In this document: positions 17,626-63,805 of the stretch, piece by piece | Numbering within the stretch: position 1 is the stretch's first letter | Layout of the letters: every line of letters begins with the position of its first letter | Source of the DNA: Lytechinus pictus | Taxonomy: Eukaryota | Assembly (NCBI RefSeq): GCF_037042905.1 | Contig: NC_087251.1 | Coordinates: 7,628,001-7,692,000 of the forward strand | Reading direction: 5' to 3' | DNA length: 64,000 nucleotides | Translations under genes and position numbers: made by a program | The notes under the pieces: generated by a model | Database searches by the model: none | The model's input: the letters and a program-made list of their open reading frames with translations, nothing else | What the model was told of the DNA's origin: nothing

Positions 17626-17743
17626 CCTTAGTCTAGCTGTATGTTTATTACCACCTATCATCTTCTTAATACACCACACTGCTGATCTGTCTCCTCGTTT
17701 ATACTCCATGGTTTGACTTTGTGATGGTAGGCTTGGGGATACA
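17626..17743 (-). CDS. AP4M1: AP4M1 exon 12 (VSPSLPSQSQTMEYKRGDRSAVWCIKKMIGGNKHTARLR)
   Basis: 118 nt. W.IKK..GG motif of mu adaptins. Flanked by tttacag and gtgagt. Its last 36 nt are also the first unit of the 50-bp array. Confidence 0.92.
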
Positions 17744-27365: not shown

Positions 27366-28790
27366 ACATTAGGGACTACGGTCACACCAGTAAACACTAA
27401 CATACACAAAGAAGATGATGGATATGAAAGGAGTGATAGCGAGATGAATTAATCTAACAGTAATGAGTGTAAATCTCAGAATGAAGACCGAAGAGAAGAG
27501 ACCAGTGATGGTGGGGTGCATGAAACTAACAAAGGTGAAATGAAACCATGCAATGTAGATGATGGCTACAAGAGTAGTGATGGTGGAGGTAATGACTCTA
27601 ACATAGTTAATGTGAAACAATGTAATGCTGATGATGGATACACAACTAGTGATGGTGAGGTGTATATAACAAACAGGGCTGACAAGAAAGGATGGAATGA
27701 AGAGGTTGAGTATGCAACTAATGATAGTCTGGTTTATGAAAGTGACCAATGTGATGTGCAACAGTTATGGAATGAGGAAAATGGACATGAAGCTAAATTA
27801 GCTAATGTTGGTGTGGTTAATAATGGAGATGATGTGCTTATTGGTCACATGAGAGACGTAAATGAAACAAGGAAAGATAATGTAGGGTCTAATGTTAGTG
27901 ATGTAATTTGTCAGGATACCGATGCCAGTGTGCCCTCATTGTCCCAGGAGTGTACATTTACAGACACTTATGAAAGCAGTTCATGTTCTCCTCCAGTTTC
28001 ACGTTTGAGTGATTTCAGAACTTCTTCTCTCCATCGCATTGATTGTTGGCATGGCAATGTTGCCTTTACTACTCCGAGTGGATCGAGTTGCTGTCCACTT
28101 TCTGCCGATGATTGTCGGTCTTTGGTAATTTGGGATTGTTGCCAATCCAATGTGACCTACAGTTTTACAGAGTCCCTTGATTTGGATCCTAGTCAGAACC
28201 ATGGTCCTTGCTTTTTGTCAGATGTGACAATTTCAAACTAACTTGACCTTGCCTGATGTAACAGTTTTGCCCAACTTTCTTTGCCTGATGTGACAGTTTT
28301 GCCTACCTTGACTTTGCCGGATGTGACAATTTTCCCTAACTTGACTTTGCCTGATGAGACAGTTTTGCCTAACATATCACTCAATATGCTACTGGATCGC
28401 TGCATAGGAAGCAACCTTATCCTTGACCGTGGAGGTACCGTGCTGCCTCTTGATCACATGTTTGACACTTCTAGTAGTGTTGATACCGTGTCCGTTACAC
28501 CATCGGCCGATTTGGTGTTACCCTTCAACGCGAGTTACTGCCACAGAGCAAACACTGCGGTAACCGCTATGCCTCCTTGCCCGGCTAATGTCAGCAGCAG
28601 TAGCTCTACTGCACAAGTTATCTATCCAGCGCGGGTACCATGTTTCGTGGATGGGTTGATCTCGCAGAACTTTCAGTCGTTCACCCTGCGTGCGTCACCT
28701 CCAACTGAATGTCCGTACTTGGCTAGCATCTCAATCGCTAATACCCATGTTCATTCCTTCTGGACTGATGTCGCATGCCATACTCGCCCT

Positions 28791-29762
28791 CCAGATCAGT
28801 TCCCTTGCTACCCTAGGCTTGGCCCTGCTGAACTGTCCACTCCTGAAGGATGTCGTGCTCGTCCGCCAGATCAGCCCCATGCTAGTCCAGGGCATGGTCC
28901 TGCTGGTCTGTCTGCCCTGGAGGTTGTCGTCACACTCGTACGCCAGACCAGCCCCATGCTAACCCAGGGCATGGTCCTGCTGGTCTGTCTGCCCTGGAGG
29001 TTGTCGTCGCACTCGTACGCCAGATCAGCCCCATGCTAACCCAGGGCATGGTCCTGCTGGTCTGTCTGCCCTGAAGGATGTCGTCGCACTCGTACGCCAG
29101 ATCAGCCCCATGCTAACCCAGGGCATGGTCCTGCTGGTCTGTCTGCCCTGAAGGATGTCGTCACACTCGTACGCCAGATCAGCCCCATGCTAACCCAGGG
29201 CATGGTCCTGCTGGTCTGTCTGCCCTGGAGGTTGTTGTCGCACTTGTACGCCAGACCAGCCCCATGCTAGTCCAGGGCATGGTCCTGCTGTTCTGTCTGC
29301 CCTGGAGGTTGTCGTCGCACTCGTACGCTAGATCAGCCCCATGCTAACCCAGGGCATGGTCCTGCTGGTCTGTCTGCCCTGGAGGTTGTCGTCGCACCCG
29401 TACGCCAGATCAGCCCCATGCTAACCCAGGGCATGGTCCTGCTGGTCTGTCTGCCCTGGAGGTTGTCGTCGCACTTGTACGCCAGATCAGCCCCATGCTA
29501 GTCCAGGGCATGGTCCTGCTGGTCTGTCTGCCCTGGAGGTTGTCGTCGCACTTGTACGCCAGACCGGCCCCATGCTAACCCAGGGCATGGTCCTGCTGGT
29601 CTGTCTGCCCTGGAGGTTGTCGGTGCACTTGTACACCAGATCAGCCCCATGCTAACCCAGGGCATGGTCCTGCTGGTCTGTCTGCCCTGGAGGTTGTCGG
29701 TGCACTCGTACGTCAGACCAGCCCCATGCTAACCCAGGGCATGGTCCTGCTGGTCTATCTCT
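28791..29762. repeat. 77-bp GC-rich tandem repeat, ~12 copies, preceded by one diverged 75-bp unit
   Basis: CAGATCAG recurs at 29021, 29098 and onward (77 bp). The first interval, 28791 to 28866, is 75 bp. Confidence 0.95.
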
Positions 29763-34134: not shown

Positions 34135-36911
34135 TTATTACTCCACTGTTTTCAAAGAAATTTCACTGTCATTTAAGTAACACATCGTTTGTCTCCTCTT
34201 CACTCTGCAACTTTTTACTATCCACAAAATAAGTCACAGTATCAACTGTCTATATATTTATCGTTCTTTTTTACTCCACTTTTCCAACAAAATTACGCAT
34301 GGTAATTAACTGTATCATCAACCCCTCTTTTCCCTTCTCTTCAAAACCACTCTGCCACTTTTAGACGGTAGGCTATCCACTAAATAAATCAATTCAAACT
34401 GTCTATATCTTTATCCTCCTTTTTGACTCCACCTTTTTAACAATATTCACACGGTAATTAACCTGTATATTCCATCAACCCCTCTTTTCCCTTCTCTTCA
34501 AAACCACTCTGCCACTTTTAGACAGTAGGCTATCCACTAAATAAATCAATTCAAACTGTCTATATCTTTATCTTCCTTTTTGACTCCACTTTTTTAACGA
34601 TATACGCACGGTAATTAACCTGTATATTCCATCAACCCCTCTTTTCCCTTCTCTTCACTCTGCCACTTTTAGACAGTAGGCTATCCACTAAATAGATTAA
34701 TTCAAACTGTCTATATCTTTATCCTCCTTTTTGACTCCACCTTTTTAACGATATACGCACGGTAATTAACCTGGATATTCCATCAACCCCTCTTTTCCCT
34801 TCTCTTCAAAACCACTCTGCCACTTTTAGACAGTAGGCTATCCACTAAATAAATCAATTCAAACTGTCTATATCTTTATCCTCCTTTTTGACTCCACTTT
34901 TTAACGATATACGCACGGTAATTAACCTGTATATTCCATCAACCCCTCTTTTCCCTTCTCTTCAAAACCACTCTGCCACTTTTAGACAGTAGGCTATCCA
35001 CTAAATAGATTAATTCAAACTGTCTATATCTTTATCTTCCTTTTTGACTCCACTTTTTTAACGATATACGCACGATAATTAACCTGTATATTCCATCAAC
35101 CCCTCTTTTCCCTTCTCTTCAAAACCACTCTGCCACTTTTAGACAGTAGGCTATCCACTAAATAAATCAATTCAAACTGTCTATATCTTTATCCTCCTTT
35201 TTGACTCCACTTTTTTAATGATACGCACGGTAATTAACCTGTATATTCCATCAACCCCTCTTTTCCCTTCTCTTCAAAATCACTCTGCCACTTTTAGACA
35301 GTAGTCTATCCACTAAATAAATCAATTCAAACTGTCTATATCTTTATCTTCCTTTTTGACTCCACTTTTTTAACGATATACGCACGGTAATTAACCTGTA
35401 TATTCCATCAACCCCTCTTTTCCCTTCTCTTCACTCTGCCACTTTTAGACAGTAGGCTATCCACTAAATAGATTAATTCAAACTGTCTATATCTTTATCC
35501 TCCTTTTTGACTCCACCTTTTTAACGATATACGCACCGTAATTAACCTGGATATTCCATCAACCCCTCTTTTCCCTTCTCTTCAAAACCACTCTGCCACT
35601 TTTAGACAGTAGGCTATCCACTAAATAAATCAATTCAAACTGTCTATATCTTTATCCTCCTTTTTGACTCCACTTTTTAACGATATACGCACGGTAATTA
35701 ACCTGTATATTCCATCAACCCCTCTTTTCCCTTCTCTTCAAAACCACTCTGCCACTTTTAGACAGTAGGCTATCCACTAAATAGATTAATTCAAACTGTC
35801 TATATCTTTATCTTCCTTTTTGACTCCACTTTTTTAACGATATACGCACGATAATTAACCTGTATATTCCATCAACCCCTCTATTCCCTTCTCTTCAAAA
35901 CCACTCTGCCACTTTTAGACAGTAGGCTATCCACTAAATAAATCAATTCAAACTGTCTATATCTTTATCCTCCTTTTTGACTCCACTTTTTTAATGATAC
36001 GCACGGTAATTAACCTGTATATTCCATCAACCCCTCTTTTCCCTTCTCTTCAAAATCACTCTGCCACTTTTAGACAGTAGTCTATCCACTAAATAAATCA
36101 ATTCAAACTGTCTATATCTTTATCTTCCTTTTTGACTCCACTTTTTTAACGATATATGCACGGTAATTAACCTGTATATTCCATCAACCCCTCTTTTCCC
36201 TTCTCTTCACTCTGCCACTTTTAGACAGTAGGCTATCCACTAAATAGATTAATTCAAACTGTCTATATCTTTATCCTCCTTTTTGACTCCACCTTTTTAA
36301 CGATATACGCACGGTAATTAACCTGGATATTCCATCAACCCCTCTTTTCCCTTCTCTTCAAAACCACTCTGCCACTTTTAGACAGTAGGCTATCCACTAA
36401 ATAAATCAATTCAAACTGTCTATATCTTTATCCTCCTTTTTGACTCCACTTTTTAACGATATACGCACGGTAATTAACCTGTATATTCCATCAACCCCTC
36501 TTTTCCCTTCTCTTCAAAACCACTCTGCCACTTTTAGACAGTAGGCTATCCACTAAATAGATTAATTCAAACTGTCTATATCTTTATCTTCCTTTTTGAC
36601 TCCACTTTTTTAACGATATACGCACGATAATTAACCTGTATATTCCATCAACCCCTCTTTTCCCTTCTCTTCAAAACCACTCTGCCACTTTTAGACAGTA
36701 GGCTATCCACTAAATAAATCAATTCAAACTGTCTATATCTTTATCCTCCTTTTTGACTCCACTTTTTTAATGATACGCACGGTAATTAACCTGTATATTC
36801 CATCAACCCCTCTTTTCCCTTCTCTTCAAAATCACTCTGCCACTTTCAGACAGTTAGCTATCCATCCAATACAATTTCAACAAGCTTATCATTTATCTTC
36901 CTTTTTGACTC
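34135..36911. repeat. ~157-bp satellite, ~17 monomers, with a 776-bp (5-monomer) higher-order repeat
   Basis: ACCCCTCTTTTCCC recurs at 34321, 34478, 34635. The monomer with a 6-bp deletion recurs at 34635, 35411 and 36187 (776-bp period). Confidence 0.95.
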
Positions 36912-37290: not shown

Positions 37291-39478
37291 GGCAAAATCG
37301 TGATATAGGCCCCGCTCGAGAAAAACTTGTAATCGATCATACATCAATATCTTGGTTGCTAACTTCAGCTCACTATATATACTCGTGATATAGGCCCCGC
37401 TGCTGTGTTGAATGGCTCAGAATGTCCGTTCGCGGGGCCTGTTTCACGAGTATAATACTATAATCGTTATATAGGCCCCGCACTACGGCACTTCAGACGC
37501 TCCAACACAGTAGCGGGGCCTGTATCACGAGTATATTATTAAGCTTGCATCCTAAGATAATCGCGAAACTGGCCCCGTCCAATGCGCTTTTCCCAGCATT
37601 CGCACGTGTGTGGGGCTCGGATGACGGCTATTAGTATACTCGTTATCGAAGCCCCTTGCACTGTTTCCCCGAATGAATATGCCTATTCGTTTCCTTTTCT
37701 GAACTTAAATGGATGAAAAGTGGGGACGCGGGGGGGGGGGGGGATTTATGAAAGGAATGAAAAAAAATACAAATTGATAATACGCAGGAAGCCAGATGAA
37801 TGATTCAATATTGAATTGAAGAGAAGAAAGCCGATTTGAAAAAAAATGTATTTTGACTTCTTACATCCAGGTGATTATATCATGATACATGAATGAATAA
37901 ATGGATTCATTCGCAGCAGTACGTCAAGTGAAAGATTGGGGGAAATTATACAAGAACTATATAATTTAATTATTAATGACACCTCCCTCCCCGCAAAAAA
38001 ATAATTCAAATGAAATGCTGAATAAAACGAGGTTATCAAATAACTAGCAAATACAAATTACGATGGATAATGGAACAAAAATAACTATATATAGGCCTAA
38101 CGTTACATCGAAAACACACCAAAAAAATTAGCAAATGAATGAATCATTCACAGATTTACCAAAATATATTCAGAGAGCAGATCTTTAAAAGCAAAATATT
38201 AGCAACACGAGTGCGGCGTCAGGTTGTGAGGGGCCTGGTTGATTTTTCTCTGAAAACTGGAAGGATAACATCATGCCTAAAACAAGTTGCCCATATGGAT
38301 CCTACTCCATTGTCAAGCAGAGTTTTTATACTCACTTCTTTATCATTCCCCTTGTTTTTTTTTTATAATAAATTGGAGCCCCCCGGGCCCCTACAGCGCC
38401 GCGCATGATATCACTCGATCACCGGGGAATCAAGACCCACGACCACGCTATTTTCCATGATATACAACTATACAAGTGTAAGGGGCCTCGATAACGAGTA
38501 CTAATAGCCGTCATCCGAGCCCCACACACGGCGAATGCTGGGACAAGCGCATTGGACATTACAAAAAAACTGAAACCAAAAAAATTAAATGATTAATGAA
38601 TAAATATAAATTCATTAATTAATCAATATAAATACATTAATTAATCAATTAAAATAGATTGAAATAAGTGAACTTCCACACATAAAAATAATTAAAAACG
38701 AATGATACCTTTTACTCTCTATCTCACAAAAGAAAAAACAAACTGAAAACAAATAAATTAAATGATTAATTAATCAATTAAAATAGATTGAAATGATACC
38801 TCTGACTCTCTATATCACAAAAGAAAAAAAAATGAAAACGAATAAGTTAAATGAAATACATTAATCAATCAATATAAATAGATTGATAAATAAATAAGTT
38901 AATAACTGTATTAATATATAAGTAAATCGACAAATAAATTTCTCAAGAAGTAAATACATACACATTTTATTATTCTCTCTCCTTGTTTATTTGGAAAATA
39001 AATTGGAGCCCCCCCCCCCCCCACACACACTCCAGCGCCGCCCATGATAATTCTCACCGGCCGGGGAAACAAGCCCCACGACCACGTTATTTTCCATGAT
39101 ATAACAGTGCAAGGGGCCTCGATAACGGGTATACTAATAGCCGTCATCCGAGCCCCACGCACGTGCGAATGCTGGGAAAAGCGCATTGGACGGGGCCAGA
39201 TTCGCGATTATCTTAGTTAGGATGCAAGCTAATATACTCGTGATACAGGCCCCGCTACTGTGTTGGAGTGCCTGAAGTGCCGTAGTGCGGGGCCTATATA
39301 ACGATTATAGTATTATACTCAGGAAACAGGCCCCGCGAACGGACATTCTGAGCCATTCAACACAGCAGCGGGGCCTATATCACGAGTATATATAGTGAGC
39401 TGAAGTTAGCAACCTAGATATTGAGGTATGATCGATTACAATTTTTTTCTCGAGCGGGGCCTATATCACGAGTATGCC
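37291..39478. mobile_element. Foldback non-autonomous DNA transposon with ~370-bp TIRs, possibly Merlin-like
   Basis: 37291-37665 is the reverse complement of ~39102-39478. GGCA...TGCC termini and 8-bp duplication GTGAAATT (37283-90, 39479-86). Confidence 0.85.
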
Positions 39479-47536: not shown

Positions 47537-49462
47537 ATTGAAACACTCTCTCATGTGATTCGAAATGATAATTTAGTTGTGGGTTTACACTTTGGACACA
47601 CAGAAGTGAAACAAGTTCTTTATGCAAATGACATTACACTTTTTGTTAAAAATCTTAGTGCCATGAACCGTTTATAAATAATTTTTGAAAGTTTTGCAAG
47701 TGTATCTGAATTAAAAATGAATAAAGAAAAGACTTTTGTAATGTTACTAGGCAATGCTAATCAAGAAAAACCGGGAGCATCCCCATTCGGACAAGTAGTA
47801 TTTATAAAAATATTAAGATTATATTTTAGCTTACACATTCATGTACAAGAATTAAGGAATTTTGAGCAAAATCAAAAACTCCCTCTCGTGGTGGAAACAA
47901 AGAGATTTAACGGTAATGGGTAAAATACAATTGTTAAAAACTTTCATACACTCTAAGTTAATATTTATAACGCCATTCAATCCAATTCGATATTTCAGGA
48001 ACTTGATAAATTGATCTGTGACTTGTTATGGAGAGGAAAGGATAAAGATAGGCGAACTACGATGTTTCTTGATTACAAATATGCATGGGGACTTAAAATG
48101 ATGAGTTTTGAATAGTTTGTCAAAGTTTAGATAATCATGTGGGTTTAAAAGATTATTAATTGGGAACCAACAAATTAAATGGAAATTATATTTCGATTAT
48201 GGTTCTCAACATCTCGGAGGAAAATTCATTTTTTCTCTGTAAATATGATATTCGACAGTTAAAACTGTCTTTATCGCCATTTTATTGAGAGCTATTGAAA
48301 GGGTTCGCGCCGACGACCACACAACACAGACACGAGGGCTGAGGTTTCTTCAGTTCTTTTATTGACCAACCCAAAAAACAGCCTCGGTCAGAACACTAAT
48401 TCCGCATTTGCTTCAACATCTTCAGACTACTGTATATTGAACATGAAGGGAAGTCCTCGCAGAAATCTTCTATACTTCAAAATTAAACTTTCTTCTGCAG
48501 GAACAAGTATCCTCCTCAACAACAAACAGTGGGAATGCCCTTGCTACTGCCAGTGTCATGAGTCACTAGACTCTCTCCTTAGCTAACAATAAAAGTGCAA
48601 TGGTGCACATCAAAGTACAAAAGCATCCCTAAAGAGGGGGTACATGAATTGGCATTACTGCTACTCCTAAAAAGGCGGGAAAGAATTAGCCAATGAGCAG
48701 AGAGGGAAAGAGTAAGGCAAAGTTGGTATACCTACAGAGAGGGAGAAAGAGTACTGTGAAGAAAACCCCTTTTCGTTAAAAGAAAGATCTAATCTTCAAA
48801 ATAAAGATTTAGATTTCCCCATATTTCATTTGTTAAATATTGAGCTTTGTTTGTTTACATCACGTAACTGAACGCCAGTATAGTCATTGAATGCCGGCGA
48901 TCAGCTGTTTTTACTACGTGAACTGTGACCTGAATTCCGGAGAGAGACTGGTGAATTTACTTGGATTAATTGCTAGTGTGCGCGCATACGTGTTAGCGCA
49001 GAGGAATTGGTATATTTCTGCTGAGTCACGCCATATTCACGTAGAGCCAGCAGTATGATCTATTTATGGGACCGGTATGGTCTGTTATGAAATTTTATGA
49101 GCGTTTAAATAGCTCTAAGTAAAAATTTGAATCTTACCTTTTGTGTAGATTCTCTGGAAGTTGATGACAGCATTAATTTATTGCTGGAATTTCTTCATTC
49201 ATGTTTGGATACTGTTATTTTCCTTTATTCTGAGACAATTACCGCCAGGATTTTGAACTCTTCCTTGGATCTAAAGCTCTGATGCGCGCATACGCGCACA
49301 GACGCGCTATCATTGGTATTTTAAAGTATTGAATTTGCATAGCATCCCGCTGCGTAATGTTTATGTGAAGAGAGTGGTTTTTAAAGCACTAAAATTACAT
49401 AACAACCCGCCGCGTAATGCAATGAGCTCAGAAATTGCCAAAATCCTGGGGGGCCAAAAGTC

Positions 49463-49470
49463 TATAAATA
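49463..49470 (+). promoter_or_regulatory. Candidate LTR TATA box (copy at ~59405)
   Basis: TATAAATA followed by G-rich then pyrimidine-rich sequence, ~700 bp into the LTR. Confidence 0.5.
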
Positions 49471-50301
49471 GGGGAGGTTTGAGGAGTTTGTCATATCGTC
49501 TGGAAGCTCTCTTGAGTTAAGTTAGCTCTCCTAGTCAATTCACATTCACTCTCTCGAGAATTCTCGTTCTCTGTTTCTCTTTCTACATTGTACATTCTTC
49601 TGTGAGTACATTACGTCATAATATGACACTTAGATTCATTCAGGGAATTCAGCGAGATTAATGATGAATTTTAGCTAGGAATTTGAAATCATTCGTCACC
49701 TTTTTGGGATTAGTGACGATTTTTGGCAACCAATACTCTGTTGTATTTCTTAAGTTATAGTCAGCTTGGATTTATCAGCTGTTCACAGAAACTGGGCAGC
49801 TATTGTTATTCTTAAGCAGACTTTGATTCATTTGTCAAGTCTACTAATTGTTTGATAGATATCTAGAGAAGATATGAAAGCATTTATTGGTGCTTATTTG
49901 TGTTCTTTTTGACATGAACACAGATGTTTGGAGCAGATAGGAATTAATTGATGGTCACAATAGTGAACATGAATGCTGACTGTTAATTTATCTTTCTGGA
50001 ATCTCCTGAATGGATATTTAATTACCTTATTTATGAAATTTGATAATTTATGCATTTTTATATTATGAATTTATTTCTGACTTGATGACAATATTTAGGC
50101 AGTCCTTTTAAGGACTCTTGACAGTCTGAATATTAAATCAAATTATCTAGTCAGAGAAATTAAATTACTGCATTGATAAAATTATTCTACCAACGTGGAA
50201 AAGGCTAGTGTCAGATTTTCAATCTCTAAATAGAGATTATCTTTTTGGTCAGTAACATTTGACATAAAACTGTCAAGTTGTTCTGGAATGTGTGTTGTTT
50301 T

Positions 50302-51955
50302 CAGCGGCGTAACAGGGGTCGGTGGCCAGGGGGGGCAAGAGCCCAAAATTTCCCGGTCATATAATATGGTATGAACATGCAGGTGTAATGGTGTAATGAG
50401 GCGACTATTTTGAGAAGGCCAGATATTGCGTATTGGGCAGAATTTATCTTTAAAAAAGTTGCGAGCGAGCGGAGCGAGCGAGCAAAAATTTTGACCTTTT
50501 TAATACAAAAATCCAATTTTGTGATAGATTTTGACATGATATCCAGCTATAGAGAATAAGATATTTCACTCTTCTTTGTGGCAGTAGCGTGAAGAGTAAA
50601 AAAAAACGAGGGGCGCAGTATAGCACGAGCTAAAAAGCTGCTTTATAAAAGTCCAGAGCGAGCGCAGCGAGAAAAAAAATCACCTTTTCATGAAAATAAT
50701 AATACTAATAATAATACTTCTCTTATATAGCGCATAATAAACTGAAAATTTCTCTACGCGCTTTGCAATAAAGGAAACAAAATACACACACTGCAAACAA
50801 AGAAGAATCTAACTTAGCAATTTTTTAAAATTATATTCAGTAAATAAAATCATATTCTACACTTTTCCTTTGCTTTTCTTTCCTCCTTTTTTTGTTCTTG
50901 TTTGTAGAACTTTTTGGGACCATGGCCCAACCCTTCCATACGAAGTGCTGTGCGGTTGGGGTCCGGGGCGGATCCCCCGGAACTTCTAGATATCAAAGCC
51001 ATTTAAACCTCGCAGATTGCCGCTATTTTAATCAATTCGCGGGCATGTACAGGATATAGCTTTTACACTACACATTTATTCAACCAAGTAGCGTAATGAA
51101 CCAAATATTTTGAGGGGCAAAACATAGTAATGTGCATGGGAAAAATCTGTAAAACGTCGCCAGCGTGCAAAGCGCGAGCTGGAAAAAATTGCCTATTGAA
51201 ATTACATTCTAATTATGTTATACATTTTTCCATTTGCAGCAAATAACACATTTCAATGTTTCCATTCATTTCATTACACGTTGTCTCCTATAATTTCATT
51301 TATTTCCTCTTGGGTGTGGAACCAAGAACCCCCGCGCCTGTGCAGTGATTGAAAGTGATTGTGAACCGGGGGGGGGGGCGTTATAGAGCCATTTGAAGGT
51401 TATAAATGAAGAGCCCCTACTGCGTGGGGTCTGGGCAAAGCCCCGGTAGCTTATTTGCATAAAATTTAGCAAGCTTATAGCACAATGTTGTATGCAGTCC
51501 ATCTTTCTTCCCGCTCTTTAATTTCAGTCATCGGCAGCCCGATCGTGTTATTTTTTTTTTCTTGTCCCTTTTCTTTGTTTTCCAATTAAACATTAGCTTT
51601 TGACTAATTACATTCTACCTTTGTTTCCCGCTATTGCATGTATGCCATTTTGTCATCTTTTAATTTCTTTCCCACCGTACTATTGCATTACATAGGCCTA
51701 TTTCGGAATGATTTGTTCTTTCTCAAATGTTCTTCTTTCGTATATTTTCCCGCTTTCCTTCATTTTCTATTTAAAAAAGTTTTTTCTTCGCTTTCTTTTC
51801 ATTTTTTCCTTTCCCTTCCCTTTCCTCCTTTCCTTTTCCCCTTTTTCTTTCTCCCTCCTTTTTTTTTCTTTTTCCCGTTTTTCTTTTATTTTCCCGGTGA
51901 AATCCGCCAGGGGGGGCAACTTGCCCCCCCTGCCCCCCCGCCTGTTACGCCACTG
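50302..51955. mobile_element. hAT-like composite MITE inserted in the 5' LTR only
   Basis: TIRs CAGCGGCGTAACAGG / CCTGTTACGCCACTG and 8-bp duplication GTTGTTTT. The empty site is visible in the 3' LTR at ~60230. Confidence 0.92.
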
Positions 51956-52204
51956 GTTGTTTTGGTATCGCTTTGAATATTGATCTGACTTTGGGATTTT
52001 TTCCACATTGGTCGTTTAAAGGATATTTATTGATAGAGTCGTGAACTCAATTCTTATTTCAGGATTAATGACTGATTATTTATTTACATTTCTTACATCA
52101 TATACAAATAGGATCACACTAAACAAAGCTAGCCATCATGAGTGTTCGGATGTTAAGATCACGTGTAACTTAGGTGTCAAGCATGCTATTCCCGTAGTTG
52201 TTAA

Positions 52205-52336
52205 GATCAGAATACTTAATGTTATAAGCTCAGAATACTTAATGTTATACAGATCAGAATACTTAATGTTATACAGATCAGAATACTTAATGTTATACAG
52301 ATCAGAATACTTAATGTTATACAGATCAGAATACTA
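52205..52336. repeat. 24-bp tandem repeat inside the LTR, ~5.5 copies (also at ~60480-60611)
   Basis: Unit AGATCAGAATACTTAATGTTATAC. Confidence 0.92.
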
Positions 52337-54437
52337 AATATTAATTCTGATAATCTGACGAATACAATGTAACTAGATTAGAATATTGATTCTGACATTA
52401 AGATTACAAGGTAAAAGATGTGAATAATCAATGGAATGTAAATAGCTGATTATCAATCAGAAAGCATTTGTAAACAACTTGTAAATAATTTAAACTCTCT
52501 GTGCAGTCATTCACATGTTTTATTAAGAATACTTGATGTTTATAGTCATAGACTGAAGTAAACTCAGTTTATAGATGAAGCTCAATTCTTCATTTAGAAT
52601 ATTGACACGGTATTAATAGATGGTTGATTTAGTTACAGTGAAATAGGAATAATTGCTTAGGTGTTGGTCTTTCAGACTTGTTTTCACTTAGCTGTATTCT
52701 CAGACAGCAGGGACGATGTTAAAGTTTCCGGTAGGCTTTAATGCTAAGAAAGGTACTATGTGAGTCTATTCTTGAACCCGTGATGATTAGAGATATTTAC
52801 GGATTTCTGAGGCTTTTCATCACACAGAATGTTGGATGTTGTTACAAACTTCACACCGACAAAGTGAGTGGAAGTTTTGTAGGCGCTGTAAGGCTGGTAA
52901 ACAAGGCCCGTTGAGAGGTTGATAGGATAAGGATATTATTGGAGATTGGTGTGTTGTATTGGGTTAGTGACATTGGATGGAGAAAGATTATGAGTAACTG
53001 CTGGCAGTTTAGATAGGATTACTCACATAAGTCAGAACGACAGAAAAGAACCATTGGTCCTGGAACTTTTGTGGAGAGTAGATTACAGTCTTAAGTTGAA
53101 ATAATTCTTAGAGAGAACACAACTCTACGGAGTATAAAGTACAGAACTAAGTAGGATGCTCGATACTTACAATTGATATAGATTATTGCTTAGTGTATTT
53201 ATAACAGTGAATACATAGGATTTATCAACTTAGTAATTAATTATTATTCTATTTATCATTCTATCAATTTAAGAGTGACATGCACAGACTTACATTTAAG
53301 TTCTTTATTATGTAGAGTAAGTTATACAATTTTATATTGCTCATTCCATATTCAATGAATTTTATACTTATGCAAATTGATGTAAATATCCAAATTTTAT
53401 TGTTGAAATGTTTCAGAAGAATGGTTAACTTCAAGTTTTTCTTATATTAAAGTTCAGTTGAACTTTACTTGTTATTTCTTAGGAATCAATAATTGAACTT
53501 GCACACTTGAATCTAGAAGGAACATGATTAGTGATCAGTGTTTGTTGAGAATGATGAATCCAATAAATTGGATTTGTTGCTAAGTCTTAGAATTAGAAAT
53601 GGTGATCAATTGATTAGTGATGATTGATTGATGATGTGATTAGGGATAAGAAGTACCGTACAATTAGTTTAAGCATTATTTAAGTTAGGGTTCTTAGTTT
53701 ATTTATAGACCAACCTTGTATATTGCAAGAAAACGGAACTCGTCATCGAGCTTGGAAAACTACGCTTACCTAGTGAGACCCAGTGATAAAGAGCAGATTT
53801 GAGAACTGAGGAAAAGACTAGAATGATTGATTGCGAAGCAAGGACTGACCGCTTCTATGATTGCCTATGTGCATACGACTGCACGTGTGTGATGTGGATA
53901 TGCCTGATCGTGTGTGTGTAGAACACGAGGCGAACAAAACGTTTTGTATGTGAGTGAATAGAGATTTGGTTCATGGCTAACTCTATCGATGAAAGATGAG
54001 AAATATCATGGTTATATAATTAAATCTTACTTAATCATTCAGTGAGTAAACTCACCAGTTAAATTCTGCTGTGAAGGTCAGGACGCTGGAGTATGACAGA
54101 AGTCTTGTGATGGGAGAAAAGACGGTTTTCTTCAGATTATCGGAGCTCCTTCAACCTCTGTGGATCTGGCAGAATGGAGAGGCTAAAAGTTGGCGGTCGA
54201 TGTGAGAAGATGGACCAATCACGGAGCTCGTAGTAGAACTCAGATATTATGGAACTTGAGATGGCTATTCTGATTGGTGGTTCACTAGCTCTTTAAAGTT
54301 CTCATCGAAGAAAAGTTTCTTCATTACGGTCAAGTGTTAAATTATGCTTGGCCAAGAGCTCAATAACTCTCTAAACTATTGTGGTGGCAGCATACTATTT
54401 TTAAAGGTTATTTTGATAGGGTCTCACGTTACATTTT

Positions 54438-54457
54438 TGGTGGCACGGCGGTGGGAT
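54438..54457 (+). other. Primer binding site, tRNA-Leu-like
   Basis: TGGTGGCA(CG)GCGGTGGGAT 4 nt after the 5' LTR. Complementary to a tRNA-Leu 3' end (…AUCCCACCGCUGCCACCA) apart from a 2-nt insertion. Confidence 0.7.
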
Positions 54458-54905
54458 GGTCTTTTCAAAGAACCCCTCCACTTTTAAAAGAAAAAAAAAA
54501 ATACGGGTACATTTTTGTCTGCTAAGTAGTAGAATGATCTGTATTAAGTATATAAAAAAAAAAATTTGCTATTATTATGTATAGTTGTGTACGGTACTAG
54601 TAGATATTTAAGAATGTATTGTTTAAGCTATGTATAATAAATAAGTTGTGTTTTGAGTTCCTTATTACAAGTGTGCATTAAATAAGTTAAGATTGAATAT
54701 GGAAAATGAGCATTAATATGTCTATGGACATGACAGTGAATTAATCACTGTGAATAATAAGGAAATCTACTCCTTTTACAATGTATCTATTCCTTTTACA
54801 ATGTAAGGGTACGTTTGCTTGACACAATCTAAAACATGTATATTTATACTTAAACACAAGAAAATTAATCAAACATCCAAATAAATCAAAACTATAACAC
54901 TCAAT

Positions 54906-55825
54906 ATGGTGAAACCAAGCGTCGAGCTACAGTCTGAGTTAGCAGCTGGATACTGAAGTTGTGGAGGCTGAATGGTTGAAATGACATTGACGCTGGATAG
55001 GTTCTCACCGTGAGGCTCGTAGAGGCAGAACTGGAGGTCTCAAACAGTCTATATGGTCAGGAACTCACCTACCCAATCTGACTTCACTTTGGACAGATGA
55101 CTTGGTCCTGGAGAGAACGCTGAAACCTTGTTGCTGGAATTGCGGACTAGGCATCGACAGCGAAGAGTCTACAGGAACTAGGTCAGGCAATTAGGGAACT
55201 TACTTGCCTGGCATACCCGGAGCTGAGCATTGATGTTGGAGAGGCTTGCTAGTTTTCTCAGTAGCAATTGACGGAGAGGTCAGAGGTGCTATTTTCTGAG
55301 CTCACCCCAGGACGCTAGATGAGGCGATGGCAGCTGGGTTGACAATGGAGTCTTTTCCACAGACGGAGAAGGCAGGAGAGAGGAATAAGCCACGTCACGT
55401 CGGAGCAGTAGGGGATGGAGCGCAGTCGTCACCTGCAGATGAGAGAGTAAAGGAGATAGAAGAATTACAGTCAAGCCTGCAAGTGAATCAGAATGATGAA
55501 AGAACAGATGAGTGTGAAAAGGATTGGAGGCTAACCATGAATTGTGTACTTCAACTGGAGAAGCTGGACACATCAGTCATGATGCAGCAAAGTGGAACAG
55601 AAAGGTCCAGAGAACTAGGTGTTCAGATGGAGGTAGTGAATCTTTTGAGAAGCTAAGCTGGAACAGATGTTGATGAGATTATTGGAATGGACTTCTTACA
55701 GGAAGCAGATGAAACTGTTGGTTTTTAAATGGATGATGTTGGGTATCAACTCACCTTGGAAAATTGTGCTGGACATGCTCACTCAAATGCTGATGGGTTA
55801 TCCAGACAACCTTGCACCGATTGCT
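54906..55825 (+). pseudogene. Decayed gag / protease-end / RNase H-end remnants
   Basis: gag-like LGQAIRELTCLAYPEL (~55178), protease C-terminal-like IIGMDFLQ (~55680), RNase H end HSNADGLSRQPC (~55780). Many stops. Confidence 0.7.
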
Positions 55826-56192
55826 GACATTGTTGGAGATTGAAGATGACTGGAAGAGAAAGAGAAGTATAAATGATTAGACTTTATTTCTATTAGATTT
55901 TGAATTGTTACATTAATTGAATTTATATCAATGTTTTTCATGAGTGAACTATATTGGATTTTATTGTGGTTATTAATGAGATTTTGACATGGAAGCTGGA
56001 GAGTGTGATGAAAAGGAGATGTCTACCATAACATTTATGCCAATAACTGAAGAGGAAATCAGGAAGGCACAGTTACAAGATGGAGACATAAAGCATATTT
56101 TGGGATGGAAGGAAATATGCAGTGAGTGACCGAGCTGGAAAGATGTTTCACACCTATCATCAGCTACTAAGGTTTACTGGGTAAACTGGACT

Positions 56193-57428
56193 TTGCTAGA
56201 GGTACAAAAAGGTGTCTTGATGAGGAGATGGGAATCAGAAGATGGAAAGGAGATAACTTGGAAAATTGTACTCCCTCGTTCTTTGCGAAGTACAGTACTG
56301 GAGGAATTACATGGTTCTCAAACAGCTGCTCATCTTGGAGTCAATAAGACATTGCATAAAGTACAGAGGAGATATTACTGGGTTGGACTTGCTGCAGATG
56401 TGCGATTGTGGATTAAGAGATGTACTATCTGTGCACAGCTGAAAAACCCCCCAAAGAAGAATAAAGCTCCACTTCAGAAATATAGAGTTGGTGCACCACT
56501 AGAAAGGGTAGCGATGGACATTTTGGGCCCTTTACCCGAGACGGACAGTGGAAACAAGTATGTGTTAGTCGTGGGAGACTATTTCACGAAATGGATAGAA
56601 TCGTACCCATTACCAGATCAGGAGGCGGAGACGATTGCTAGGGTACTAGTGGAGGAGTTTATTTGTCGGTATGGAATACCAAAAGAACTACATAGTGACC
56701 AAGGGAGGAATTTTGAGTCAAGGCTGATGGCAGAGATGTGTAAGATGCTTGGTATTAAGAAATCAAGGACTTGCCCACTACACCCACAAGGAGATGGATT
56801 TATAGAAAGATTTAATAGAACCTTACTGGGTATGGTGTCGTCATTGCTCAATCCAGATGACGAACAGAAGGACTGGGATGAGAGGATTTCGTTCGCGATG
56901 TTGGCATACAGGTCAGCAGTCCAGGAATCAACTGGAGAGAGTCCTGCTATGATGATGCTTGGAAGAGAAATCAGTCTGCCGGTAGATTTGCTGTTACCTT
57001 CTCCAACACCTGCAAATGAAGAAGAATCGGACTATGTGAGTGATGTGAGGGAAAAGTTACACGAGGTACATGAAGGTGCTAGAGAAAAACTTGGAATTGC
57101 AGCTGAAAGACAGGCTAAGTCTTATGATAGAAATATCATTCAGCAAAGTTTTACGACTGGAGATTGGGTGTGGTTATTCGACGCATCAAGGAAGAAAGGA
57201 GTGTGCCCTAAGCTGAGCACGAAATGGAAAGGACCATTTATGGTAGTAACCAAACTTTCTGATGTCGTATATCGAATCCAGGAATCATCGAGAGGCAAAC
57301 CAAAGGTGGTGCACATCGATCGACTAAAGGCTTATACTGGAAAGCCTTTGAAAAACTGGTTGACACAAGAAATCAGGCATAATCCAAATAGAAACAGGGT
57401 TCCACCACAAAGATACATTGAACTTTGA
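56193..57428 (+). CDS. Gypsy-type integrase (HHCC zinc finger, DDE core, GPY/F)
   Basis: LH..HLG...C..C; MDILGP, HSDQGRNFES, IERFNRTL; KWKGPF. The frame extends upstream to an ATG at 55989 with a single TGA at 56127. Confidence 0.95.
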   Translation: MLEVQKGVLMRRWESEDGKEITWKIVLPRSLRSTVLEELHGSQTAAHLGVNKTLHKVQRRYYWVGLAADVRLWIKRCTICAQLKNPPKKNKAPLQKYRVGAPLERVAMDILGPLPETDSGNKYVLVVGDYFTKWIESYPLPDQEAETIARVLVEEFICRYGIPKELHSDQGRNFESRLMAEMCKMLGIKKSRTCPLHPQGDGFIERFNRTLLGMVSSLLNPDDEQKDWDERISFAMLAYRSAVQESTGESPAMMMLGREISLPVDLLLPSPTPANEEESDYVSDVREKLHEVHEGAREKLGIAAERQAKSYDRNIIQQSFTTGDWVWLFDASRKKGVCPKLSTKWKGPFMVVTKLSDVVYRIQESSRGKPKVVHIDRLKAYTGKPLKNWLTQEIRHNPNRNRVPPQRYIEL

Positions 57429-57575
57429 GTCACAGAAACAATACATCTTCACCATGATGACTGTATTCAGAAATTTATTCAAAAATATTCCTTTCTTTAT
57501 CATTTTTATTGTATGTATGACAACATACAATTATATGCCTTGTATGCTTTGTAATTTGTATCTTACAGTACCAGG

Positions 57576-58544
57576 ATGGAAGTTATATGCAGCCAGTGCA
57601 AAAGAGTATTTTCATCTTATCCGGAATTAAACTATCATTTACGGAAGGTTCATCAAATGACTTTTCTTATTCACTGTCAAAGATGTAATCACGAGACTGA
57701 GAGAAGAGAGACAATGAGACAGCATTACAAACGACATCATAGAGCTCATATCAAAGAAGTAGACACAATACGATCTAGCCCAACTTTGCCTAAGCCTAAA
57801 GACAGGATGGAGGAACAGCAGGAAAGGGAGAAGAGGAGACAGATTGAAGAAGAAAGGGAGAAAGAGAAGAACAGACGAGAAGAGCAGAGGAAGAGGAAAG
57901 AGGAGGAGGAAAGGATCGAGGAGGAAAGGAGGCGACAAGAAGCAATAGAGGAAGGAAGGAGGAAGGATAGTCAAGAAAGAGTTTGGAAAAGGGTTGATAG
58001 GAGTATAGAAGACGAGATAGACGAAGAGATCATAGAAGAACGAAGGAAACTTGAGGAAAGTAGGGAGAAAGAAGAAGAGGAGAGGCAACTGGATGAGGAA
58101 GGAAAGCAGCTAGAAGAGGAGAAACGTAAGATAGAGGAGGAGGAGAAAAGATTAGAGGAAGAAAAGAGGAAGCTAGAGAGAAGGAAACATGAAAAAGAAG
58201 CCAAGCAGGAGTTAGCAAAAAGACAGGAAGAAGAGAGACTAGAGAAAGAAAGGGAGTTAGAGAAGAAAAGATTAGAAGATGAGGAGAAGAGATTGAAGGA
58301 GGAAATCAGACAGATTGCAGAAGGCAACACAGAAGATAAACCAGAAAGTAGAATTGTTGAACTTGTCGGTGATAAACAGAATATTTCTATAAAACTTCCT
58401 GAGTGCCAAAGTGAACAGATCCAAATAGTATCAAAGGTTACAATTGCGACATCTTATTATACCAAGACCAAGAATGGATACACTCTAAAAAGAAGATTAA
58501 TTGACTCTCACTATCCGGAGAAAAGACCAAAAGTTGCAAAGTAA
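57576..58544 (+). CDS. Accessory ORF: two C2H2 zinc fingers, long E/R/K-rich helix, basic C-terminus (322 aa)
   Basis: CSQC-x12-HLRKVH and CQRC-x12-HYKRHH. ATG in a good context (AGGATGG), uninterrupted frame, ends ~150 bp before the PPT. Confidence 0.85.
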   Translation: MEVICSQCKRVFSSYPELNYHLRKVHQMTFLIHCQRCNHETERRETMRQHYKRHHRAHIKEVDTIRSSPTLPKPKDRMEEQQEREKRRQIEEEREKEKNRREEQRKRKEEEERIEEERRRQEAIEEGRRKDSQERVWKRVDRSIEDEIDEEIIEERRKLEESREKEEEERQLDEEGKQLEEEKRKIEEEEKRLEEEKRKLERRKHEKEAKQELAKRQEEERLEKERELEKKRLEDEEKRLKEEIRQIAEGNTEDKPESRIVELVGDKQNISIKLPECQSEQIQIVSKVTIATSYYTKTKNGYTLKRRLIDSHYPEKRPKVAK

Positions 58545-58696
58545 TTTGTTGTCATGTATTTTGTATGATCTTTATGTATTTTATGATGTTTAAGAATACT
58601 TTTATGTACATGAATATTCATGTATTGCTATATATTGATATTTAATGCTATTATAATGTAGTCACTGGGACAGTGACTTTATTTGGCTGGGGGTAG

Positions 58697-61600
58697 TGTG
58701 AAGAAAACCCCTTTTCGTTAAAAGAAAGATCTAATCTTCAAAATAAAGATTTAGATTTCCCCATATTTCATTTGTTAAATATTGAGCTTTGTTTGTTTAC
58801 ATCACGTAACTGAACGCCAGTATAGTCATTGAATGCCGGCGATCAGCTGTTTTTACTACGTGAACTGTGACCTGAATTCCGGAGAGAGACTGGTGAATTT
58901 ACTTGGATTAATTGCTAGTGTGCGCGCATACGTGTTAGCGCAGAGGAATTGGTATATTTCTGCTGAGTCACGCCATATTCACGTAGAGCCAGCAGTATGA
59001 TCTATTTATGGGACCGGTATGGTCTGTTATGAAATTTTATGAGCGTTTAAATAGCTCTAAGTAAAAATTTGAATCTTACCTTTTGTGTAGATTCTCTGGA
59101 AGTTGATGACAGCATTAATTTATTGCTGGAATTTCTTCATTCATGTTTGGATACTGTTATTTTCCTTTATTCTGAGACAATTACCGCCAGGATTTTGAAC
59201 TCTTCCTTGGATCTAAAGCTCTGATGCGCGCATACGCGCACAGACGCGCTATCATTGGTATTTTAAAGTATTGAATTTGCATAGCATCCCGCTGCGTAAT
59301 GTTTATGTGAAGAGAGTGGTTTTTAAAGCACTAAAATTACATAACAACCCGCCGCGTAATGCAATGAGCTCAGAAATTGCCAAAATCCTGGGGGGCCAAA
59401 AGTCTATAAATAGGGGAGGTTTGAGGAGTTTGTCATATCGTCTGGAAGCTCTCTTGAGTTAAGTTAGCTCTCCTAGTCAATTCACATTCACTCTCTCGAG
59501 AATTCTCGTTCTCTGTTTCTCTTTCTACATTGTACATTCTTCTGTGAGTACATTACGTCATAATATGACACTTAGATTCATTCAGGGAATTCAGCGAGAT
59601 TAATGATGAATTTTAGCTAGGAATTTGAAATCATTCGTCACCTTTTTGGGATTAGTGACGATTTTTGGCAACCAATACTCTGTTGTATTTCTTATAGTCA
59701 GCTTGGATTTATCAGCTGTTCACAGAAACTGGGCAGCTATTGTTATTCTTAAGCAGACTTTGATTCATTTGTCAAGTCTACTAATTGTTTGATAGATATC
59801 TAGAGAAGATATGAAAGCATTTATTGGTGCTTATTTGTGTTCTTTTTGACATGAACACAGATGTTTGGAGCAGATAGGAATTAATTGATGGTCACAATAG
59901 TGAACATGAATGCTGACTGTTAATTTATCTTTCTGGAATCTCCTGAATGGATATTTAATTACCTTATTTATGAAATTTGATAATTTATGCATTTTTATAT
60001 TATGAATTTATTTCTGACTTGATGACAATATTTAGGCAGTCCTTTTAAGGACTCTTGACAGTCTGAATATTAAATCAAATTATCTAGTCAGAGAAATTAA
60101 ATTACTGCATTGATAAAATTATTCTACCAACGTGGAAAAGGCTAGTGTCAGATTTTCAATCTCTAAATAGAGATTATCTTTTTGGTCAGTAACATTTGAC
60201 ATAAAACTGTCAAGTTGTTCTGGAATGTGTGTTGTTTTGGTATCGCTTTGAATATTGATCTGACTTTGGGATTTTTTCCACATTGGTCGTTTAAAGGATA
60301 TTTATTGATAGAGTCGTGAACTCAATTCTTATTTCAGGATTAATGACTGATTATTTATTTACATTTCTTACATCATATACAAATAGGATCACACTAAACA
60401 AAGCTAGCCATCATGAGTGTTCGGATGTTAAGATCACGTGTAACTTAGGTGTCAAGCATGCTATTCCCGTAGTTGTTAAGATCAGAATACTTAATGTTAT
60501 AAGCTCAGAATACTTAATGTTATACAGATCAGAATACTTAATGTTATACAGATCAGAATACTTAATGTTATACAGATCAGAATACTTAATGTTATACAGA
60601 TCAGAATACTAAATATTAATTCTGATAATCTGACGAATACAATGTAACTAGATTAGAATATTGATTCTGACATTAAGATTACAAGGTAAAAGATGTGAAT
60701 AATCAATGGAATGTAAATAGCTGATTATCAATCAGAAAGCATTTGTAAACAACTTGTAAATAATTTAAACTCTCTGTGCAGTCATTCACATGTTTTATTA
60801 AGAATACTTGATGTTTATAGTCATAGACTGAAGTAAACTCAGTTTATAGATGAAGCTCAATTCTTCATTTAGAATATTGACACGGTATTAATAGATGGTT
60901 GATTTAGTTACAGTGAAATAGGAATAATTGCTTAGGTGTTGGTCTTTCAGACTTGTTTTCACTTAGCTGTATTCTCAGACAGCAGGGACGATGTTAAAGT
61001 TTCCGGTAGGCTTTAATGCTAAGAAAGGTACTATGTGAGTCTATTCTTGAACCCGTGATGATTAGAGATATTTACGGATTTCTGAGGCTTTTCATCACAC
61101 AGAATGTTGGATGTTGTTACAAACTTCACACCGACAAAGTGAGTGGAAGTTTTGTAGGCGCTGTAAGGCTGGTAAACAAGGCCCGTTGAGAGGTTGATAG
61201 GATAAGGATATTATTGGAGATTGGTGTGTTGTATTGGGTTAGTGACATTGGATGGAGAAAGATTATGAGTAACTGCTGGCAGTTTAGATAGGATTACTCA
61301 CATAAGTCAGAACGACAGAAAAGAACCATTGGTCCTGGAACTTTTGTGGAGAGTAGATTACAGTCTTAAGTTGAAATAATTCTTAGAGAGAACACAACTC
61401 TACGGAGTATAAAGTACAGAACTAAGTAGGATGCTCGATACTTACAATTGATATAGATTATTGCTTAGTGTATTTATAACAGTGAATACATAGGATTTAT
61501 CAACTTAGTAATTAATTATTATTCTATTTATCATTCTATCAATTTAAGAGTGACATGCACAGACTTACATTTAAGTTCTTTATTATGTAGAGTAAGTTAT

Positions 61601-62708
61601 ACAATTTTATATTGCTCATTCCATATTCAATGAATTTTATACTTATGCAAATTGATGTAAATATCCAAATTTTATTGTTGAAATGTTTCAGAAGAATGGT
61701 TAACTTCAAGTTTTTCTTATATTAAAGTTCAGTTGAACTTTACTTGTTATTTCTTAGGAATCAATAATTGAACTTGCACACTTGAATCTAGAAGGAACAT
61801 GATTAGTGATCAGTGTTTGTTGAGAATGATGAATCCAATAAATTGGATTTGTTGCTAAGTCTTAGAATTAGAAATGGTGATCAATTGATTAGTGATGATT
61901 GATTGATGATGTGATTAGGGATAAGAAGTACCGTACAATTAGTTTAAGCATTATTTAAGTTAGGGTTCTTAGTTTATTTATAGACCAACCTTGTATATTG
62001 CAAGAAAACGGAACTCGTCATCGAGCTTGGAAAACTACGCTTACCTAGTGAGACCCAGTGATAAAGAGCAGATTTGAGAACTGAGGAAAAGACTAGAATG
62101 ATTGATTGCGAAGCAAGGACTGACCGCTTCTATGATTGCCTATGTGCATACGACTGCACGTGTGTGATGTGGATATGCCTGATCGTGTGTGTGTAGAACA
62201 CGAGGCGAACAAAACGTTTTGTATGTGAGTGAATAGAGATTTGGTTCATGGCTAACTCTATCGATGAAAGATGAGAAATATCATGGTTATATAATTAAAT
62301 CTTACTTAATCATTCAGTGAGTAAACTCACCAGTTAAATTCTGCTGTGAAGGTCAGGACGCTGGAGTATGACAGAAGTCTTGTGATGGGAGAAAAGACGG
62401 TTTTCTTCAGATTATCGGAGCTCCTTCAACCTCTGTGGATCTGGCAGAATGGAGAGGCTAAAAGTTGGCGGTCGATGTGAGAAGATGGACCAATCACGGA
62501 GCTCGTAGTAGAACTCAGATATTATGGAACTTGAGATGGCTATTCTGATTGGTGGTTCACTAGCTCTTTAAAGTTCTCATCGAAGAAAAGTTTCTTCATT
62601 ACGGTCCAGTGTTAAATTATGCTTGGCCAAGAGCTCAATAACTCTCTAAACTATTGTGGTGGCAGCATACTATTTTTAAAGGTTATTTTGATAGGGTCTC
62701 ACGTTACA
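58697..62708 (+). repeat. 3' LTR (4012 bp)
   Basis: Same termini as the 5' LTR. Preceded by the purine-rich tract GGCTGGGGGTAG. Confidence 0.95.
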
Positions 62709-62871
62709 GTACTAAAGATAAAGTTGGCAGATATAATGTGAAATATAGATTCATTATATGCATTATATTCAAATGCTACATGTACTGAAATGGAATAATA
62801 AAATATAGTTTTCTTTTAACTAGATTTTTAGAGAAATATTATACAAAAAAAAAAAACCAATTTACAACATC

Positions 62872-63805
62872 ATTGAAAACATGGTTGGAATCAGACGGCT
62901 TGAGACAAATCTGTAACAATTAAAAAGGTAATGAAGTCATTTTTAATAACAAACATATATGTTTTCGATGATTTTCTTTTTATCATGCAGATCTTATATC
63001 GAAAGGTATATTCAGGTTGAAACATATTGCAGATAAAGATGGTGAATCGAAAACAGATGCACATTTTAAAAGTAAAGGCGTCACTTCGTGGAATATAATA
63101 CAGATAAAACATAATTATATTTGAGAAAATTCCACCCGTTTGGTAAAACCATAAGCATTTCACAGAATAAAATAAAAGGGAACTAGATCTGAAAGATATT
63201 TCATTCATTGTTTCGGACAAGATTGTCCATGTAAGTGAACTTATCTCAACTTTAGGACTATTCTCAATTCCAAATTAGAAGTCATTCCATTAGTTAATCG
63301 GTTAAAAGAAACTATTGAAAAAAAATATTAGGCCAAGAAAATGTACTTTGAATAGTAAGCTGAGGGAATTTGAGTTCAAATTGTTACATGGGATTATTTA
63401 CACGACTCGGGATTTATTTCGCTTTGGCATGGTTTTCACGGATCTATATATGCTCCTTTGTCAAAAAGAAGTATAAACATACCGTGACTATAGGAGGGCA
63501 CTGGACGCGGAATGAATATTTTTGGTACACCCTTGGGGAAGACGTATTTATTAAATCATGTTCTGTCACGGTTAGTTAAATATATCATATTTCAAATAAA
63601 AAAGAAAAATATACCCCGTAATATAGCCAAGAAGTAAATGACATTTTACTTTAGTAAGAAATCAAATTGAGGAAAAAAAGATACTTCCGCCAGTAGATCA
63701 TAACACCTTATCTTTACATTTTAAAAATGGGAGGATTTTGATTCCGAATGGAGGGCACAGTCTTTCTCTCTCTCTCTCTCTCTTCTTCTTCTTCTTCTTC
63801 TTCTT
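62872..63805 (+). mobile_element. 3' remainder of the L1/Tx1-like LINE
   Basis: Reading continues from 48300 (ELLK|TWLE). KLREFEFKLLHGIIYT at ~63357 resembles the C-terminal zinc-binding region of ORF2. Ends in (CT)n/(TTC)n. Confidence 0.65.

Follow-up and report, generated by a model that had tools for sequence, protein, structure and literature searches.

A sea-urchin Ty3/Gypsy element without reverse transcriptase, probably mobilised in trans, and its clade of predicted stand-alone integrase genes

As a rule, long terminal repeat (LTR) retrotransposons carry integrase into the particle within Pol, so that an upstream frameshift or deletion kills the integrase as well. Mouse IAP I-delta-1 elements are deleted and trans-mobilised and keep integrase sequence, with Gag and integrase fused in one frame; foamy viruses make the whole of Pol, not integrase alone, from its own spliced RNA. 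We analyzed an LTR element in a 64,000-nucleotide stretch of Lytechinus pictus DNA (RefSeq contig NC_087251.1, positions 7,628,001 to 7,692,000, forward strand; this whole stretch is the window, and all positions below are counted in it). The element lacks reverse transcriptase (RT) and most of RNase H, and its integrase gene, with an ATG of its own, lies behind a stop codon and a spacer. An original prediction, made from the sequence alone, had taken it for a member of a trans-mobilised family that may supply its own integrase and borrow Gag and RT from a helper.

Other described systems share parts of this layout. The wheat families RLG_Sabrina, RLG_WHAM and RLG_Quinta keep Gag and are without RT and integrase, as far as the available portions of PMC9744471 and PMC11302176 describe them; in these long-lived, non-autonomous LTR families one gene still works and the rest is borrowed from a partner, as may hold for the sea-urchin family too, which, with gag decayed and integrase kept, is their mirror image. 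In the accessible part of PMC6317226, Ogre and Bianca have pol open reading frames (ORFs) split by an intron or by a 100-300-bp non-coding spacer between Gag-protease and RT-RNase H-integrase. Our element likewise has a pol broken by such a spacer, whereas its break lies between RNase H and integrase and its downstream ORF has its own conserved start. Troyka elements, in the available text of PMC12440569, also live in sea-urchin hosts and include abundant young RT-less LTR elements. They have CG...CG ends, 3-bp duplications, 100-400-bp LTRs and no GPF/Y, and we rejected them as the family of our element, which has TG...CA ends, a 4-bp duplication, 4-kb LTRs and GPF; we also rejected Troyka as an integrase-less partner, because it has its own integrase. 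Ginger DNA transposons carry a Gypsy-type integrase as a stand-alone gene (PMC2836005, in the part available) and were rejected too, since they have terminal inverted repeats and none of the LTRs, primer-binding site (PBS), polypurine tract (PPT) and gag remnant that are all present here. The available portions of PMC8556966 and PMC13524379 do not mention such a layout. The literature covered included no LTR element with its integrase as a gene apart and no account of the clade described below; Repbase, subscription journals and supplements fell outside that scope, and a prior entry there is possible.

We consider it probable that the element is an RT-deleted, trans-mobilised, non-autonomous offshoot of an old split-pol Ty3/Gypsy clade of sea urchins. 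Sister copies and a second species share the loss of RT and RNase H, insertions with clean target duplications still occur, and the decay is older than the last jump, so that the trans-mobilised family of the original prediction largely holds. By its ends, PBS, gene order and integrase motifs the element is Ty3/Gypsy: it has direct LTRs with TG...CA ends, a 4-bp duplication, a PBS after the 5' LTR, a PPT before the 3' LTR, the order protease-(RT)-RNase H-integrase, and an integrase with HHCC, DD35E and GPF/Y. One usual feature, an integrase within the Pol polyprotein, is absent, as a stop and a spacer precede the integrase here. With canonical marine-invertebrate Ty3/Gypsy elements (Metaviridae) it shares TG...CA LTRs, duplication length, PBS type, gag-protease-RT-RNase H-integrase order, GPF and Gag type; unlike them, it has a separate methionine-initiated integrase, a C2H2 zinc-finger gene (ORF3), 4-kb LTRs and no RT or RNase H. 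The nearest RT-fused Gypsy pols, such as P0137, P0146 and P0157, show 53-56% integrase identity.

Four of 23 listed public runs were compared with positions 54434-63700, and figures from this comparison are among the 40 of 665 differences and 14 of 173 contig ends listed. Of runs X9-X20, whose word shares were small, X10 alone was used. X1 denotes contigs of organism A, whose library type is not on record and whose pieces possibly come from different copies; X10 denotes DNA of organism B, a second species. From gag to integrase the element reads:

54965..55480, + strand: decayed gag, capsid region, in three frames with stops (tblastn)
55481..55698, + strand: nucleocapsid and protease remnant ending in IIGMDFL, with no zinc knuckle and no DTG
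55699..55743, + strand: deletion junction in place of RT and most of RNase H (alignment; X1 and X10 contigs)
55744..55872, + strand: RNase H tail (HSNADGLSR, CxxCxxC), then a stop (sequence)
55873..55988, + strand: AT-rich spacer (22% GC), 116 bp, from pol remnant to integrase; candidate intron or acceptor region
55989..57428, + strand: integrase as a stand-alone gene, its own ATG opening a frame of 479 codons, with a stop at 56127-56129

IIGMDFL (55678-55698) and HSNADGLSR (55780-55806) lie in the same frame with 81 nt between them, and a complete pol, P0137, has about 600 codons where this element has the deletion junction. RT and most of RNase H are absent, as had been predicted from this short gap, although the gap is 81 nt and not the ~75 nt first given. 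The gag region is indeed full of stops (11, 23 and 20 in the three frames), its alignment to relatives requires all three frames, and neither the zinc knuckle nor the protease DTG can be recognised. The same junction occurs in other copies, as the proposed family requires. It is crossed by a diverged X1 contig (55423-55787, with 13 other letters and 10 gaps) and, in the second species, by an X10 contig of depth 85 that covers 55602, 55717, 55721 and 61 further letters. That the junction also sits at a different site is something we infer, the junction and the foreign flank being on separate molecules. In X10 the junction contig (depth 85) is as deep as the 5' part of the integrase (69) and ORF3 (58), which gives no sign of an excess of close full-length copies there; contig depth is a poor measure of copy number.

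The ends of the element and its insertion site are as follows:

48755-62708, + strand: whole LTR element, with ~4-kb LTRs and a GTAC target duplication on both flanks
48751..48754, + strand: left target-site duplication GTAC (sequence; X1 empty-site contig)
48755..54433, + strand: 5' LTR (TG...CA), 5679 bp including an insert (LTR self-comparison)
50302..51955, strand unassigned: non-coding DNA element in the 5' LTR, 1654 bp (terminal inverted repeats)
54438..54457, + strand: PBS, matching the PBS of three Gypsy loci
58685..58696, + strand: PPT (sequence)
58697..62708, + strand: 3' LTR (TG...CA), 4012 bp (LTR self-comparison)
62709..62712, + strand: right target-site duplication GTAC (sequence; X1 contigs)

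In one X1 contig the left flank meets the right flank across a single GTAC, which is an empty site (17 of 20 letters match), and because this site exists, the identity of the LTRs is not due to assembly collapse. In another X1 contig the LTR end and GTAC lead on into other flanking DNA, which is a second insertion. The LTRs differ exactly as the original prediction had judged by eye: one substitution in 4007 aligned bases (54332/62607, with 0/993, 0/539 and 1/2478 mismatches across the aligned segments), a 5-bp indel at ~49750-49754, and the 1654-bp insert, which it had called a miniature inverted-repeat transposable element.

From the one LTR substitution, 0.5 interior changes (95% upper bound 3) are expected over 4263 bp since insertion. 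At least 25 sites between 54829 and 56889 carry the same other letter in X1 and X10 (among the listed differences, a few at part depth), and by parsimony these are changes on the lineage of this copy. Because 25 lineage sites face an expectation of 0.5, at most 3, the decay is older than the insertion, and the earlier claim that it predates the last transposition stands. Compared with the window, the X1 pieces, which may mix copies, carry 29 differences in 755 bases of gag and protease and 8 in 1,033 bases of integrase and ORF3 (Fisher p 1e-5), a contrast that might reflect constraint on integrase at the family level.

The integrase of this copy is dead and was drifting before the last jump. 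Its domains remain recognisable, with HHCC at 56310-56432, D at 56517, D at 56697, E at 56805 and GPF at 57231, and with Pfam matches to Integrase_H2C2 (E 5e-20), rve (1e-18) and Integrase_p58_C (2e-14). The motifs are thus intact, in D-D35-E spacing, as the original prediction had it, and the open stretch is 432 codons, not 411, after the TGA at 56127 (codon 47). This stop is not shared by the contigs of either run, as had been suspected: base 56127 has a non-stop letter at full depth in both X1 (30.2/30.2) and X10 (69.4/69.4). Lineage-specific sites relative to X1 and X10 number 8 in 912 integrase bases, where at most 0.63 are expected (p 4e-7), and comprise the stop, five amino-acid-changing and two silent differences. 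These differences mean that this copy cannot supply its own integrase, contrary to that part of the earlier proposal as far as this copy goes, and the parent of this copy probably had a non-working or unselected integrase.

The integrase ATG at 55989 had been called new; comparison with relatives shows otherwise. We fetched 269 integrase homologues, 49 at 60% identity or more and 220 below. The 12 best (474-506 aa, 62-82% identity) consist of integrase domains alone, and the closest named protein, from Lytechinus variegatus, is 96% identical across 269 aa. An RT or RNase H end is present in 0 of the 49 closer relatives and in 155 of the 220 more distant ones. In all 39 closer relatives that reach the N-terminus a methionine stands 42-63 residues ahead of where the alignment begins, the remaining 10 being fragments or gene models that are short at that end; the 39 come from 18 clusters that are mutually related and hence not independent. 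RT-fused pols have a methionine in the same interval in 35 of 111 cases, and their integrase identity peaks at 56% among the best 120 of 1,838 matches (proteins of 757-2160 aa). The residue after the methionine is A, E, G or D in 13 of 16 cluster representatives, as expected with G at +4. A quick tree of 83 rows, from which RT-bearing rows below 53.5% identity were excluded, places 29 stand-alone integrases, including this one, in one clade (Shimodaira-Hasegawa-like approximate likelihood ratio test, 100). No RT-bearing row falls in the clade, and outside it integrase-only proteins adjoin RT-bearing twins. The clade spans 18 clusters at 90% identity, reaches down to 60% identity and covers at least two sea-urchin genera; at three Strongylocentrotus purpuratus loci the integrase starts at the same place, and a homologous zinc-finger ORF comes after it. 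To judge from these alignments and the tree, a separate methionine-initiated integrase is the ancestral state of a deep clade. In public annotations, genes of the family appear under host names ('stress response protein NST1-like', 'C2H2-type domain-containing protein').

Relatives of the decayed gag bear on what an autonomous member would look like. Searched against the full protein library, the gag remnant gave nine matches, the best being intact Gags with a zinc knuckle: P0256 (66% identity across 77 aa by phmmer; tblastn E 6e-31) and P0258 (tblastn E 2e-25). P0256 runs on from Gag into the start of a protease with DTG. P0258 and the stand-alone integrase P0007 come from recorded contigs of equal size, 20807, and P0259 joins a Gag of the same clade (74% to P0258; gag clade support 98) to an RT end and RNase H. 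We favour autonomous members with a split pol, of which this family would be a deletion offshoot. Viral contigs and prokaryotic genomes held no relative. A metagenome scan gave 78 loci with best segment identities of 26-59%; the first 45 of the 78 included no clade member, and those long enough were mostly ordinary RT-fused pols.

Downstream of the integrase lies a third gene that the original prediction did not mention and that is conserved, also in Strongylocentrotus:

57429..57575, + strand: AT-rich spacer (29% GC) from integrase to ORF3 (sequence)
57576..58544, + strand: ORF3, 322 aa, intact (ORF list; weak Pfam zf-C2H2)

The spacer ends in a pyrimidine tract and an acceptor-like AG (57567-57568), 7 nt before the ORF3 ATG. 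ORF3 has two C2H2-type fingers, a long E/K/R coiled coil, a short conserved C-terminal strand motif and a basic tail; its Pfam zf-C2H2 matches are below cut-off (E 2e-4), and it is 30% identical to its S. purpuratus counterpart across 114 aa (E 1e-12). A word-based search with ORF3 residues 1-85 returned no matches, and the Atlas held no usable ORF3 match, the S. purpuratus counterpart leading to generic C2H2 clusters only. As a guess from this anatomy, ORF3 most likely works in the nucleus, on LTR DNA, or serves as an integrase adaptor.

On the reading we favour, the ancestral layout would have begun with gag, followed by a protease-RT-RNase H frame closed by a stop, an integrase gene that starts at an ATG of its own, and ORF3; an internal deletion would have taken RT and RNase H from the family. 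Family RNA, with intact LTRs, PBS and PPT, would be packaged and reverse-transcribed by helper Gag and RT, and integrase and ORF3 would be made from subgenomic, probably spliced, RNAs. X1 depth is 2-10 across gag, 6.6 in the integrase spacer and 38-43 across integrase, and counts here only if X1 is RNA. The deletion and the stops in gag would leave integrase and ORF3 unsilenced, since each would be expressed as a unit of its own, probably by splicing. Sisters with an open frame could contribute integrase, and the lineage of this copy, its integrase function already lost, would have moved wholly in trans. The separate gene may be why the family keeps integrase while the rest decays. A bolder version, which we hold tentatively and rate slightly below an even chance, is that an old Gypsy clade makes integrase and a zinc-finger protein separately, and that an RT-less, Gag-less family has persisted across a species split, with capsid and RT borrowed and with selection for an integrase of its own supply. 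The zinc-finger protein may steer or regulate the integrase.

If an integrase-contributing, semi-autonomous element of this kind is real, integrase reaches the complementary DNA without entering as part of Gag-Pol. A clade whose integrase has long been separate must load it in some other way, which is a testable question of particle assembly. A separate integrase would explain a parasite that sheds Gag and RT yet controls the insertion step. A family deleted in this way is invisible to RT-based surveys.

Several findings weigh against this interpretation. The link to RT consists of one gene model (P0259, possibly nested elements) and the equal 20807 contigs, and the DNA of a complete clade member was not found in viral contigs, prokaryotic genomes or metagenomes. 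Raw RNA runs (6% of each run) yielded 38 and 40 reads, with next to none on integrase, too few to bear on starts, splicing or expression, and the contig ends listed include no splice joint at either spacer. The integrase changes of this copy are mostly amino-acid-changing (the stop and five of eight), which looks neutral.

The same neutral appearance invites an ordinary deletion derivative, in which the deletion is young, copies hitch-hike and no selection acts on the integrase of an RT-less family. Trans-mobilised deletion derivatives are common (P0138 stands beside its RT-bearing twin P0142 in the tree), and the integrase of this copy is, as described, dead and drifting. Such a history fits poorly with a junction common to two species in copies that differ by ~5-9%, with gag and protease diverging ~5 times faster than integrase, and with sister copies that are without the 56127 stop. 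We regard it as unlikely.

We give still less credence to the idea that no member of the clade has had RT for tens of millions of years, the clade encoding integrase, ORF3 and sometimes Gag and always borrowing RT. It would account for clade integrases that are never RT-fused and for the lack of a complete member among the fetched relatives, and RT-less protease-integrase proteins occur outside the clade too (P0083, P0111, P0118, P0138 and P0164). P0259, which joins a clade Gag to an RT end and RNase H, and P0256, a Gag with a DTG-bearing protease start, count against it, as does the RNase H tail of our element, which is still recognisable and unlikely to be so after very long neutral decay.

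Similarly improbable, in our estimate, is an Ogre-like intron, with the spacer spliced out in autonomous members to give one ordinary Pol and an incidental methionine. An intron between the pol ORFs of Ogre is a precedent in the available text of PMC6317226. In the 116-bp, 22% GC spacer a GT stands close to the start and an AG close to the end, and X1 depth dips within the spacer (6.6 at 55940, vs 32 and 59 to either side). An incidental methionine would hardly be present in 39 of 39 relatives although the surrounding leaders are unalignable, nor be followed by A, E, G or D in 13 of 16 cluster representatives; the obvious GT-AG pair of this copy joins out of frame, and such a joint is not among the contig ends listed. 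Finally, an old dead single copy with LTRs equalised by gene conversion or assembly collapse is largely refuted by the empty site with its single GTAC, and the second insertion junction and the LTR-specific differences, including the 1654-bp insert, leave it almost no probability.

Further observations concern the integrases and the ends. RT-less protease-integrase frames (P0083, P0111, P0118, P0138, P0164) lie in unrelated branches of the tree, and in several of them the joint is close to one and the same RNase H tail motif; for P0164, a gene model, the layout may be a splicing-prediction artefact. P0013, P0273-P0277 and P0279 (S. purpuratus models and one Logan protein) exit the integrase at the same point and continue with RYLR; there may be a genuine splice that joins the integrase with the zinc-finger ORF. 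The X1 contig ends at 56549 and 56973 belong to a contig of another, related integrase family of organism A, which is a candidate for the helper. GTAC follows the LTR in 2 of 2 insertion sites, a hint of a target-sequence preference.

The 1654-bp insert, present in the 5' LTR and not in the 3' LTR, has an 8-bp duplication (GTTGTTTT), and from this length alone we take it to be hAT-like. By eye, the 5' LTR has a TATA-like box at ~49463 and a splice-donor-like GTGAGT at ~49602. The box lies near +710 of the 4-kb LTRs, and R plus U5 would therefore exceed 3 kb. Besides the donor-like site, these LTRs contain a 24-bp tandem array of 5.9 copies. The PBS, presumably of tRNA-Leu type, is 2 nt longer than at the fetched Gypsy loci L009 and L041 and equal in length to that at L014. 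A sequence check found no complement of the PBS region of at least 9 nt inside the LTR, so there is no sign of self-priming. A PBS-like decamer (TGGTGGCAGC) lies within the LTR, ~45 bp from its 3' end (54380-54395 and 62655-62670), and is perhaps a relic of an older LTR boundary.

Elsewhere in the 64-kb window, 11046-17664 holds a 50-bp satellite in three arrays (11, 16 and 72 copies) with inverted-repeat elements between them. At 27453-29760, two ORFs of low complexity, 262 and 260 aa long, precede a 77-bp tandem array and may be the front of a non-LTR element. A 157-bp satellite of 17 copies (34218-36864) lies beside a 2.2-kb element (37291-39478) with 345-bp inverted arms (94%).

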